A stretch of DNA of 44,086 bases from a phage. Below are positions 855 to 43,571 of this stretch, one piece after another. The notes under the pieces were generated by a model. It had not been told where the DNA came from, did no database searches, and saw only the letters and a program-made list of their open reading frames with translations. The stretch is taken from NCBI GenBank assembly GCA_021132495.1, contig GCA_021132495.1_4335.1; one strand, written 5' to 3'. Each line of letters starts with the position of its first letter. Within the stretch, counting starts at the first letter, position 1. The translations under genes and the position numbers were made by a program.

Positions 855-998
855 CAATAGAGTATGGCCCTTCCGAATGCAGGCAGCGACACTACACTCA
901 GTGCTGACGCACCGCTCCGTTTCCTGCCGCACCGCGGTCGCTTGTTCATACTTCACAAGCTCAGGTGGAGCTTAGCACATTTCTTAGTAAAAGTCAAT
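855..998. repeat. copy A of a ~145-bp repeated intergenic element (second copy at 33024-33167)
   Basis: About 85% identical to 33024-33167 by hand alignment; conserved arms, variable centre; contains hairpin aagctc-aggtg-gagctt at 957-973. Confidence 0.8.
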
Positions 999-4502: not shown

Positions 4503-4531
4503 TTGATATGTGAATAGTACCATATTAATTA
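4503..4531 (+). promoter_or_regulatory. weaker promoter-like element TTGATA-N17-TAATTA with palindrome half-site variant (AATAG-tacc-ATATT)
   Basis: In the divergent control region between the XRE gene and the gene at 4604. Confidence 0.35.
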
Positions 4532-23508: not shown

Positions 23509-23615
23509 TCTTTAATCCTTTGGTTAAGAGGTTACGGGTTAAGGTTAATGCGCCAGACGGGAACCACCCGCTTTTCGTGTGCGACACTAGGCGCAAAATT
23601 ATTCTATCACATTAC

Positions 23616-23644
23616 TTGCACACCCCAATATAATAGTGTACTAT
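23616..23644 (+). promoter_or_regulatory. sigma70-like promoter TTGCAC-N17-TACTAT with palindrome AATAG-tgta-CTATT
   Basis: Near-identical to motifs at 660-688 (minus) and 33233-33261; about 40 nt upstream of the cassette. Confidence 0.5.
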
Positions 23645-23685
23645 TCACTTACACCAACGATGTTATCCCAAACAGGAGCTACACC

Positions 23686-26086: not shown

Positions 26087-26109
26087 AAAAGGCCCCGAAA
26101 GGGGCCTTA
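26087..26109. terminator. bidirectional terminator (aaggcccc-gaaa-ggggcctt)
   Basis: Perfect hairpin between the cassette end and the convergent tail gene. Confidence 0.6.
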
Positions 26110-32417: not shown

Positions 32418-32681
32418 CTATTCCAGAATATTCCTCACGTAATCCTGCAACATGAACACTTTCAGCCGCAGCTGCCGTACGCATTCAGCGTTCTGAACGT
32501 CGATAGCTAAATCCTCGTCAGCGTCGCTACTTGGCGCTGCCAGTTTGCACGGAGGCTGCATCATCGTCGTATCCGGTAATGGAATTAGCGTTTGCGACGG
32601 CGTGGGACTTGAGCAGGACGCGAGCATCGTCGAAAGTGCACACGCTGCGACCTGGCGTTTTAATGTATTTAACGACTTCAC
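32418..32681 (-). CDS. o-spanin (Rz1-like outer-membrane lipoprotein)
   Basis: Signal peptide with lipobox LASC, Pro-rich mature region; overlaps the i-spanin gene out of frame. Confidence 0.55.
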   Translation of the reverse strand: MKSLNTLKRQVAACALSTMLASCSSPTPSQTLIPLPDTTMMQPPCKLAAPSSDADEDLAIDVQNAECVRQLRLKVFMLQDYVRNILE

Positions 32682-32913
32682 GGGTAATCACATCTGATTT
32701 CGTCTTGCCTTCGTTGTCGGCGGCGGCGGCCTTTGATTCGTCCTGCTGCTGCCGTTGTGTTTTCTTAGCTAACTCAGCCTGTGCTTTTTGCTGTTGCTGC
32801 GAAACGAGATTAGCGCGGCCTTCGTGCCAGCCGCTGCGGTACTGATAAATGCCGTGTGTGTAAGCCAGGATGATGAAACATGCTCCTGCTACGACGGTTG
32901 CTTTAAGATTCAT
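32527..32913 (-). CDS. i-spanin (Rz-like)
   Basis: N-terminal TM segment, Gln/Ala-rich helical periplasmic domain, o-spanin ORF overlapping its 3' part. Confidence 0.6.
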   Translation of the reverse strand: MNLKATVVAGACFIILAYTHGIYQYRSGWHEGRANLVSQQQQKAQAELAKKTQRQQQDESKAAAADNEGKTKSDVITREVVKYIKTPGRSVCTFDDARVLLKSHAVANANSITGYDDDAASVQTGSAK

Positions 32914-33023
32914 GTTTCCCCTTTCTCGATAAGTAAAGCCCTGCCTTAAAGCAGGGCGCTAGTCCTTATCATTTAAACATAGAAACGGCGTAATCTCAGT
33001 AAACCAGTTACTTTTTACACAAG

Positions 33024-33167
33024 CAATAGAGTATGGCCCTTCCGAACGCGTCAGCGTAACTACACTCAGGACTTACGTCCCGCTCCGTTACCTGCCCGCG
33101 CCGCGGTCGCTTGTTCATACTTCACAAGCTCAGGTGGAGCTTATCACATTTTTAGTGAAAAGTCAAC
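33024..33167. repeat. copy B of the ~145-bp repeated intergenic element
   Basis: Aligned by hand to 855-998; same hairpin aagctc-aggtg-gagctt at 33126-33142. Confidence 0.8.
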
Positions 33168-33232
33168 TATTCGAATAGTTTATTCCAACATTTACAATTC
33201 GGTGGAATAACTGGAATACGTAAATAAATAGT

Positions 33233-33261
33233 TTGCGCACCCCAATATAATAGGGTACTAT
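33233..33261 (+). promoter_or_regulatory. sigma70-like promoter TTGCGC-N17-TACTAT with palindrome AATAG-ggta-CTATT
   Basis: Same motif family as 23616-23644; upstream of the lipoprotein gene. Confidence 0.5.
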
Positions 33262-33386
33262 TCATTCTATCGAACCGGGGAGGCCGTCACGTTAGTCGTT
33301 ATTTCAGTAGTAATTGCAGTTGATGCGGTGATGTTTCTTTGGGCTTGTAGTGGTATTGGTGACATTGACACGGGTAATGGTGAACT

Positions 33387-33731
33387 ATGAAATATATTAA
33401 ATTAGCAGTAGCAGGTGTTGTAGCCGTTTGTTTGAGTGGTTGCGTAAGGTCGTTGCCAGACCCAGCTTTACAGGTTTATCAGGCGGGGGATACAACGGCA
33501 ACATGTAATCAGTTACTATCGAGAATCGCCACGACAAAACAAGCTCAAGCCAACGCTACGCACCGTGTTAATAAGCAAATAGGTACTAACGTTGTACTCG
33601 GTGTTACAGGCGCATTCCTGATTGTTCCGCTGTTCTTTATGGACACGGGCGCCGGGCCTTCTATGGACGAGATGACAGCCGGTAATCGTCTGTCGCAGTT
33701 ACAACAAACATACGACGAGAAATGCAAATGA
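33387..33731 (+). CDS. lipoprotein with additional C-proximal hydrophobic segment (accessory gene)
   Basis: Signal peptide plus lipobox LSGC; opposite strand to the surrounding structural genes, with its own promoter and terminator. Confidence 0.7.
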   Translation: MKYIKLAVAGVVAVCLSGCVRSLPDPALQVYQAGDTTATCNQLLSRIATTKQAQANATHRVNKQIGTNVVLGVTGAFLIVPLFFMDTGAGPSMDEMTAGNRLSQLQQTYDEKCK

Positions 33732-33803: not shown

Positions 33804-33826
33804 AAAGCCCCATAGCGGGGCTTTTT
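33804..33826. terminator. bidirectional terminator (aaagcccc-atagc-ggggcttt + T-tracts both sides)
   Basis: Between the plus lipoprotein gene and the convergent minus gene ending at 33828. Confidence 0.55.
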
Positions 33827-43075: not shown

Positions 43076-43096
43076 CCTCTGTCTCTCCTCTAGTTT

Positions 43097-43125
43097 GTGT
43101 AAATGAATAGTAGCCTATTCTATCT
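43097..43125 (-). promoter_or_regulatory. sigma70-like promoter TTGCAC-N17-TACTAT with palindrome AATAG-gcta-CTATT
   Basis: Reverse complement matches the 660-688 motif including the adjacent gtgtgcaag. Confidence 0.45.
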
Positions 43126-43229
43126 TAGTGTGCAAGTAAATTTTATTGGTGTTTGTATTGTTGCATCTCCTGCAATAGTCGCTTCGATTGTTGCGTTTGG
43201 TGAAATAGAACAAAAATGAGAAAAATGAT

Positions 43230-43249: not shown

Positions 43250-43278
43250 AAGTCACAAAGCCAAATAGCAACCTATTG

Positions 43279-43374
43279 ACCTGTTACACCACCTGTTACA
43301 CCACCTGTTACACCACCTGTTACACCACCTGTTACACCACCTGTTACACCACCTGTTACACCACCTGTTACACC
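43279..43374. repeat. tandem array of 8 perfect 12-bp direct repeats (ACCTGTTACACC), with a degenerate partial unit at 43271-43278
   Basis: Counted unit by unit; the array starts at the stop codon of gene 43368..43571 and fills the intergenic region. Confidence 0.95.
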
Positions 43375-43571
43375 GGCGATGGTGGCTCAGGTAACGGCAT
43401 CCAGTGCGTCACGTACTTACCGTAGTGATTCCAAAATGGCTTTCTCTCGTCATCAGGAACTATGTAATAATCGTGCTGCACTGCGTTATTCAACGTTTCA
43501 TACACCAGGAATTCTTTATCAGTACTGCCGTTACCCGGTAACATTTCACTACACTTAATCCACTCGCCCAT
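43368..43571 (-). CDS. DUF551-like small protein, paralogue 1
   Basis: N-terminus MGEWIKCSE and internal THWMPLPEP shared with the adjacent gene. Confidence 0.6.
   Translation of the reverse strand: MGEWIKCSEMLPGNGSTDKEFLVYETLNNAVQHDYYIVPDDERKPFWNHYGKYVTHWMPLPEPPSPV

Follow-up and report, generated by a model that had tools for sequence, protein, structure and literature searches.

A candidate RNA family at the 5′ ends of Guernseyvirinae operons, present twice in a Kagunavirus genome

INTRODUCTION

The stretch of phage DNA analyzed here (NCBI GenBank assembly GCA_021132495.1, contig GCA_021132495.1_4335.1; hereafter the window, 44,086 bases) is a nearly complete genome of a Kagunavirus, in the subfamily Guernseyvirinae, and contains the same intergenic element twice, as copy A at 855–998 and copy B at 33024–33166. 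Each copy is, with strong support, a cassette on the minus strand in which a σ70 promoter is followed by a folded RNA of about 110 nucleotides (nt). Comparison with relatives makes it very probable that the element is a conserved structured noncoding RNA, specific to the minus strand and forming the start of the transcript from this promoter, as its helices covary in a strand-specific manner. Regarding function, our leading guess is that the element serves in cis as a leader governing readthrough of the downstream hairpin and terminators, by analogy with the put or nut systems. The rough probability attached to this proposal, 0.38, covers the cis-acting readthrough mechanism and not the existence of the RNA.

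The Guernseyvirinae (Kagunavirus, Jerseyvirus) are among the most often isolated phages of Escherichia coli and Salmonella, and are used in therapy and biocontrol. A covarying fold at the start of the capsid and tail operon offers a concrete handle on how their late genes are switched on.

A FOLD SHARED BY BOTH COPIES AND THEIR RELATIVES

An earlier note on this DNA, made from its letters, had described an element present twice, with about 85% identity, in long intergenic regions between divergent modules. Both parts of this description hold. Aligned by blastn against the window, the copies are 89.0% identical over 145 columns (E 4e-46), and divergent genes lie on either side of each (625/1105 for copy A, 32913/33387 for copy B). 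A repeat search of the window breaks the pair up into three blocks that stay in register, the two 1-nt indels between them compensating each other. A covariance model of the family matches the window only at 853–963 (117.4 bits) and 33022–33132 (128.2 bits), both on the minus strand.

These two matches delimit the structured RNAs. In copy A (853–963), a first hairpin, P1, spans 940–960 and is joined through a GA junction to a second, P2, at 873–937, which is followed by the conserved 3′ tail AAGGGCCAUACUCUAUUG at 855–872. In copy B (33022–33132), the same elements lie at 33109–33129, 33042–33106, and 33024–33041. The assignments come from the covariance model and covariation, and for copy B also from the minimum free energy (MFE) fold. 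P1 is a short hairpin at the predicted 5′ end, composed of GCUUGU, a 9-nt loop, and ACAAGC. P2 is an irregular 65-nt hairpin that comprises a CCG/CGG closing stem, a bulged C, tandem G·U pairs, and three short helices; further in, an internal loop places GGAG opposite AGUGUA, beneath a 6-base-pair (bp) terminal hairpin. The minus-strand folds are 9–12 kcal/mol more stable than those of the plus strand, copy B having an MFE of −48 kcal/mol on the minus strand versus −35.5 on the plus strand.

Within P2, the differences between the copies are mostly compensatory pairs. The lower helix is GGUGC:GCAUU in copy A and GGCGC:GCGUU in copy B, the middle helix GAAAC:GUGUC and GUAAC:GUUAC, and the terminal hairpin GUGC-GUCA-GCAC and GGAC-GUAA-GUCC, respectively. 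A “type 3” center found among relatives presents GGAGC:GCUUU, GGAAC:GUUCC, and GUGCC-AUUA-GGCAC at these positions. Further versions of the center occur at loci L085 and L163 (the latter a fourth type), and the Jersey-type versions include GGGCGU/ACGCCC versus GGGCGC/GCGCCC. When 35 distinct sequences are aligned with MAFFT, standard pairs fill 89.8% of the pair cells versus 30–41% with slid partners, and 12 pairs change on both sides versus 2–4 in the slid controls. An alignment of 38 distinct sequences built with the covariance model gives 90.5% standard among 1111 pair cells (30–40% in shifted controls), 16 of 30 pairs changing on both sides (1–4 in the controls), and a covariation score of 0.32 versus 0.02–0.05 that was reached by none of 500 shuffles. 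These latter figures come from an alignment fitted to the model and hence biased towards structure, a bias from which the MAFFT alignment is free. Independently, RNAalifold applied to whole leaders recovered the base of P2, its terminal hairpin, and a hairpin ahead of the ribosome-binding site. The pair cells include 113 G·U pairs, and when the helices are read as the plus strand only 80.1% of cells pair; the loss of G·U pairs on that strand therefore identifies the minus strand as the sense strand. Conservation is concentrated at the junction, the P2 base, and the internal loop, and the junction and loop sequences ACCGCG, CGGAAGG, and AG(U/C)GUA are invariant. The earlier note's candidate of a paralogous RNA element, transcribed in the minus-strand direction from a promoter of its own, is thus borne out by covariation and G·U pairs, the covariation analysis being one that the note had itself called for.

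PROMOTERS AND FLANKING SIGNALS

Both promoters take the form TTGACT-N14-TGn-TAAGCT, in which a 17-nt spacer separates the hexamers and a TG two bases 5′ of the −10 hexamer creates an extended −10 element. On the minus strand, the −35 hexamer TTGACT occupies 992–997 in copy A and 33161–33166 in copy B, and the extended −10 element reads TGcTAAGCT at 969–977 (hexamer 969–974) in the former and TGaTAAGCT at 33138–33146 (hexamer 33138–33143) in the latter. The −35 hexamer and its spacing are identical in all Kaguna-type copies, and the copy B promoter corresponds to “host promoter1” in the annotation of fBC-Eco01. With initiation placed about 7 nt past the −10 hexamer, the sequence predicts RNA 5′ ends at about 961–962 for copy A and 33130–33131 for copy B. 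A simple promoter scan of the window does not list TTGACT/TAAGCT, because TAAGCT agrees with the consensus at only 3 of 6 positions. The promoter call therefore draws on the extended −10 element and on conservation in relatives, where three diverged lineages retain TGnTA(A/C)(G/C)CT, as TAAGCT (Kaguna), TACGCT (Jersey), and TAACCT (L108-type). The minus-strand promoter that the earlier note had proposed for both copies, TTGACT-N17-TAAGCT, is this same site. Its proposed hairpin AAGCTC-N5-GAGCTT is present as a DNA palindrome; it overlaps the −10 element and the 5′ strand of P1, and would be incomplete in a transcript from the promoter.

Downstream of the fold, the A/B spacer alignment reveals a second promoter-like motif common to both copies, GTCACT-N16-TATAGT at 804–831 in copy A and TTTACT-N16-TATGTT at 32976–33003 in copy B (“host promoter2” in fBC-Eco01), again on the minus strand. 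Its Jersey equivalent has a 12-nt spacer and does not look functional, and the motif is not universal. Upstream of the −35 hexamer in copy B only, the inverted repeat TTATTCC-N17-GGAATAA (33180–33210, minus strand) carries an extra half-site; it is conserved at Jersey and L108-type loci, with a counterpart at about 925–960 of L056, and is probably bound by a regulator that acts on the late promoter. Copy A duplicates the core promoter together with the fold and the second promoter-like motif, without this upstream repeat.

The leftward genes that start at 625 have a separate promoter of the phage's own common type, TTGCAC-N17-TACTAT at 656–688 on the minus strand, recognized as part of a repeat family in the window. 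Besides the cassette, promoter-like repeats form two families in the window, one at 644–689(−), 23615–23660(+), 33233–33266(+), and 43093–43139(−), the other at 4503, 4547, 7096, and 11762 (all plus strand), and both contain the palindromic spacer AATAGT..CTATT. The fBC-Eco01 paper names this motif “phage promoters” (PMC9825357), and despite that label no phage RNA polymerase is evident.

DISTRIBUTION AMONG PHAGES

The region 600–1300 of the window is 99% identical to Escherichia phage vB_EcoM_SHAK7858 and matches many Kagunavirus genomes at 80–93% identity; Salmonella phages of the Jersey type match it more weakly. The closest GenBank record, OR594183.1 (locus L037), is labeled Autographiviridae/Kayfunavirus and “vB_EcoM,” whereas both its sequence and the order of its genes mark it as a Kagunavirus siphovirus. 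Against a base of 507 GenBank records with a homologue of the adjacent spanin, Kaguna-type copies of the element occur in 181 phage records at 224 places, most genomes having one copy (at the locus of copy B) and some having two, and Jersey-type copies occur once each in 269 phage records. The element is 87% identical to its copy in Salmonella phage S103, while the spanin protein of S103 is only 75% identical, a contrast taken as a sign of selection on the element. P2 center types have been exchanged between loci across phages, as exemplified by L006, which bears a type A center at locus B.

A host or prophage origin is rejected, as blastn found no match to the element among 5,426 complete E. 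coli genomes. A pattern scan for the P2 base in 185,579 species genomes returned 83 matches, nearly all of them chance occurrences in GC-rich genomes; the covariance model confirmed two, both on phage contigs in bacterial assemblies. These two, L163 2100–2250 (on a contig binned as a Bacillota metagenome-assembled genome) and L206 401–507 (on a 738-nt contig of a Taishania assembly), are Kaguna/Jersey phage DNA, and it is at the copy A locus of L163 that the fourth P2-center variant is found.

More diverged leaders, of the St162/TS6 and L108–L110 types, keep the promoter position and have in common the motifs GACCGCG and CGGAAGGG and GUAA-capped hairpins. Their hairpin order is rearranged and the covariance model gives no match; they are probably homologous to the element. 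In L108–L110, L121, and L122, at about 1010–1075, the conserved flanks of P2 are contiguous (GACCGCGCGGAAGGG) with hairpins upstream, and these loci too are negative by the model; the L108-type arrangement looks like a rearranged leader. Scanning viral contigs for GACCGCGCGGAAGGG yielded mostly chance matches, plus seven distinct sequences from L108-type relatives. In the Klebsiella members, the upstream region is unrelated and abounds in TTGCGAG repeats.

OPERONS AND DOWNSTREAM HAIRPINS

Gene context was read from the well-annotated map of Bas73 and from the annotations under the other matched records. In all relatives, the element lies directly after the conserved promoter and is co-oriented with the downstream genes. 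Copy B heads a unit of about 19 kb by the Bas73 map, running from the spanin through the scaffold, major capsid, and connector to the tail; its first gene, at 32527–32913 on the minus strand, encodes an Rz-like i-spanin according to the annotations of matches. Copy A, present in a minority of genomes, sits between the replication module and a leftward unit of about 11 kb by the same map, which comprises small early genes, holin/endolysin, terminase, and portal. In Jersey and SE2, the element follows a strong terminator that ends the portal and head-morphogenesis genes. Given this strong upstream terminator and the lack of a usable second promoter, the element in Jersey is therefore the 5′ leader of the capsid mRNA. 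The “boundary element” offered by the earlier note was accordingly right about position, since both copies head operons, but not about kind, the conserved feature being an RNA fold rather than a DNA site.

Each leader is followed by a further hairpin. In copy B, the GC hairpin GCCCUGC-UUUAAG-GCAGGGC and the ensuing UUUACUUAU (together 32929–32957, minus strand) give a terminator-like match about 195 nt downstream of the promoter, annotated as an ARNold terminator in fBC-Eco01, and lead directly into the ribosome-binding site of the Rz-like spanin. The stem of this hairpin undergoes compensatory changes (U:A to C:G and C:G to G:C). In copy A, the stem-loop at 731–786 on the minus strand has no U tract and is missed by the terminator scan; its outer stem pairs 780–786 with 731–737 and encloses a GC hairpin at 748–767. 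The leftward genes come next, behind their separate promoter, which is of the type common in this phage. The earlier note had located the copy B hairpin correctly, at 32938–32957, whereas its placement of the copy A hairpin at 737–756 has to be replaced by 748–767, inside the longer stem. A GC hairpin conserved in structure, with or without a U tract, stands 10–20 nt before the Shine–Dalgarno sequence in all lineages. The terminator-like form with a U tract is confined to Kaguna copy B, while copy A, Jersey, and St162 have a poor one or none; the promoter is present in all copies. Further terminators on the minus strand lie after the capsid gene (30562–30549) and at the operon end (26108–26089).

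Additional features of the surroundings bear mention. Two perfect bidirectional terminator hairpins, at 26089–26108 and 33804–33824, mark the ends of convergent units. A small rightward module (33290–33731, plus strand) separates a Hoc-like/tail gene from copy B and encodes a 114-amino-acid protein with a lipoprotein-like signal, MKYIKLAVAGVVAVCLSGC...; Jersey and SE2 lack such a module, and their genes there are all on one strand. At 43255–43398, a 12-nt unit, ACCTGTTACACC, is repeated head to tail about nine times next to a minus-strand terminator-like hairpin (43250–43229), an array that could consist of iterons or of a short coding repeat.

WHAT THE LEADER MAY DO

Host σ70 RNA polymerase very probably starts at TTGACT-N14-TGn-TAAGCT on the minus strand, and the first ~110 nt of the transcript fold into P1 and the long, irregular P2. 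In the proposed mechanism, the folded leader would then act in cis on its own transcription unit, letting the polymerase or the transcript pass the GC hairpin or terminator before the first gene and subsequently the later terminators, either by direct binding of the elongation complex, as HK022 put RNA does, or by recruitment of a factor, as at lambda nut. Copy B would in this way govern the spanin–scaffold–capsid–tail late operon, and copy A likewise the leftward early, lysis, and terminase unit. A cis-acting leader is favored because the element occupies an invariant position at the transcript start and is co-oriented with long operons, because a predicted terminator lies between leader and first gene in the Kagunaviruses with more terminators downstream, and because conservation at the junction, base, and internal loop fits a binding platform. 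A last reason is that the layout, with two hairpins joined by a conserved junction right at the transcript's 5′ end, resembles the one described for putL (PMC9378689).

Several observations weigh against such a leader. The HK022 PL-putL sequence, extracted by means of the primers given in PMC9378689 and aligned locally with the element, displays no significant similarity (p 0.08–0.5 versus shuffles). The U tract is poor in the post-leader hairpins of Jersey and St162 and is missing from copy A, so terminator readthrough is not an obviously conserved need. The possibly related leader of St162/TS6 precedes only two spanin genes, beyond which lies a convergent gene, and RNAalifold of whole leaders detects no conserved alternative pairing between leader and hairpin. 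Internal terminators after capsid genes are, moreover, common in phages that have no antiterminator of any kind.

Nearly as likely as a cis-acting leader, albeit doubtful in its own right, is a free-standing small RNA (sRNA) of about 200 nt, which would end at the downstream hairpin or be cut from the leader and would act in trans, either on an mRNA by base-pairing or on a protein of host or phage by binding or sequestering it. Its own promoter together with the terminator-like hairpin of copy B would delimit such a molecule, the AU-rich stretch between fold and hairpin could be an RNase E site, the distal hairpins of the paralogues are swappable (types A, B, 3, and the L163 type), and the St162/TS6 leader stands on a very short operon. 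Yet a convincing terminator is missing in copy A and Jersey, genes always follow the element directly and in the same orientation, and the distal hairpin is its most variable part, with no conserved single-stranded seed found that has an identifiable target. A genome scan for antisense targets with RNAduplex was uninformative, yielding only self-antisense among the 14 top-ranked matches inspected per copy. A considerably less probable role is in RNA processing or stability, whereby P2 would be an RNase III-type site, or P1 and P2 would protect the 5′ end and the GC hairpin would stabilize the processed mRNA. P2 broadly resembles the RNase III sites of T7 and of the lambda N leader, being irregular, about 24 bp long, and interrupted by an internal loop, a hairpin does occupy the extreme 5′ end, and the position of the GC hairpin just ahead of the Shine–Dalgarno sequence in all lineages, irrespective of a U tract, is as expected; simple stabilizers, in contrast, need no invariant junction and loop sequences such as ACCGCG, CGGAAGG, and AG(U/C)GUA. 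Less probable still is a riboswitch-like attenuator that would sense a ligand or protein and set termination at the downstream hairpin. The aptamer-like conservation, with a conserved junction and internal loop and covarying stems, and the terminator-like hairpin before the first gene in copy B would suit it, but the ~70 nt between fold and hairpin are not bridged by any conserved alternative pairing detected by RNAalifold in whole leaders, no Rfam match emerges even at E ≤ 10, and copy A lacks a terminator.

Explanations that dispense with a structured RNA fare worse. An element acting as DNA, be it an operator, a recombination or module-boundary site, or a transcription-primed replication origin, is improbable: the palindrome AAGCTC-N5-GAGCTT does overlap the −10 element and start site, the cumulative GC-skew minimum falls near copy A, and center types have been exchanged between loci in different phages, but single-stranded RNA is indicated by the compensatory changes and by the strand specificity of the G·U pairs. 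A replication origin in particular is rejected, as GC skew tracks gene orientation and transcription and has no inflection at copy B. Least credible of all is a gene for a protein of 36–41 amino acids (MNKRPR...AFGRAILYC), the small-protein reading of the earlier note. ATG-started open reading frames (ORFs) of 41 (copy A) and 36 (copy B) amino acids do exist at the same position, and coding sequences are annotated across the element in several GenBank records (L038 3109–3225, fBCEco01_09; L126 5304–5414, Bas73_0007; L056 965–1156, Jersey_08; L037 2985–3221, SHAK7858_0054/0055). However, the ORF stops early, after nine codons, in L002, L009, and L048, is frameshifted in L004, L006, and L018, and lacks an ATG in type 3, L055, L085, and every Jersey-type copy. 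The middle 45 nt of copies A and B are 82% identical as DNA yet lie in different reading frames, and the ATG itself sits in the P1 loop. With neither start codon nor frame conserved among homologues, comparison refutes a protein gene, and the annotated coding sequences are therefore most likely spurious. The result thereby corrects a recurrent misannotation, that of the hypothetical proteins fBCEco01_09, Bas73_0007, and Jersey_08.

COMPARISON WITH KNOWN SYSTEMS

The element has no counterpart in the catalogs searched. Rfam 15 gave no match over the whole window at gathering thresholds, and only weak matches far below the gathering scores at E ≤ 10 for both copies and E ≤ 1 for the loci of five relatives; ARAGORN found no tRNA or tmRNA. 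In comparisons made by eye, none of the RfaH ops, boxA, sarcin–ricin, kink-turn, and E. coli CRISPR repeat motifs fits or is conserved, and a start–stop mini-ORF after the GGAAGGG motif, also sought by eye, does not fit or is not conserved. A literature search on RNA-seq and small RNAs in Kagunavirus, Jerseyvirus, and Guernseyvirinae found no paper on noncoding RNA; one gene-level transcriptome for the group is available, without noncoding analysis (PMC12645636).

Among lambda systems, nutL and nutR with the N protein offer the parallel of duplicated leader RNA signals at operon heads that act in cis on polymerase, an action that is only proposed for the element here. Unlike nut, the element is devoid of a boxB-type hairpin of 5 bp and 5 nt, and no N-like protein was identified. 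A lambda-type nut site, that is, a CGCUCUUA-like boxA plus a boxB hairpin, was rejected by eye on the alignments; a boxA-like CUCUUUAA follows the hairpin of copy A only and is not kept at other copy A loci. The lambda PR′–6S RNA–tR′ region matches in its order of a promoter, an untranslated leader of ~200 nt, a terminator, lysis genes (Rz/Rz1 in the present phages), and then head genes. The lambda Q protein binds DNA, and the PR′ leader is not known to need a conserved fold, whereas the conserved feature of the element is precisely its RNA fold; no Q homologue is known in the Kaguna/Jersey phage group. RNase III processing hairpins, such as the R sites of T7 and that of the lambda N leader, are likewise long, irregular hairpins with an internal loop in untranslated regions. 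The element differs from them in that its motifs are conserved across genera and its place at the transcript start is fixed.

The nearest analog is HK022 put, whose RNA suppresses terminators in the absence of protein factors and depends on the β′ zinc-binding domain. There too, each genome has two paralogous copies, each placed 3′ of a σ70 promoter that heads a long operon; the transcript begins, or nearly so, with a pair of stem-loops joined by a conserved junction, and terminators follow downstream (PMC9378689). Like put, the element places a fold in the nascent transcript just 3′ of a σ70 promoter, and it has the orientation of the long operon that follows, in both copies and in relatives. 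Homology to putL/putR, with their ~70 nt, two stems in a V shape, and triple helix in stem I, is rejected, the alignment being no better than shuffles and the architecture different: put measures ~74 nt versus ~110 nt for the element, which combines a short P1 with a single long, irregular P2 of 65 nt. Furthermore, HK022 is a lambdoid phage whereas the phage here is a virulent siphovirus, and both copies here are on the same strand. Conceivably, though improbably, the element constitutes a second, unrelated class of self-sufficient RNA that reprograms host RNA polymerase by put-like processive antitermination, here driving the late operon of virulent Guernseyvirinae, as a cassette that can duplicate and confer the property on another operon. 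Were the RNA to act on RNA polymerase by itself, it would be only the second class known to do so after put, and could serve synthetic biology as a compact part. Structured phage leaders and small RNAs are known in kind; the family and architecture described here are not catalogued and make a promising candidate for a new RNA family, for which a seed alignment is at hand.
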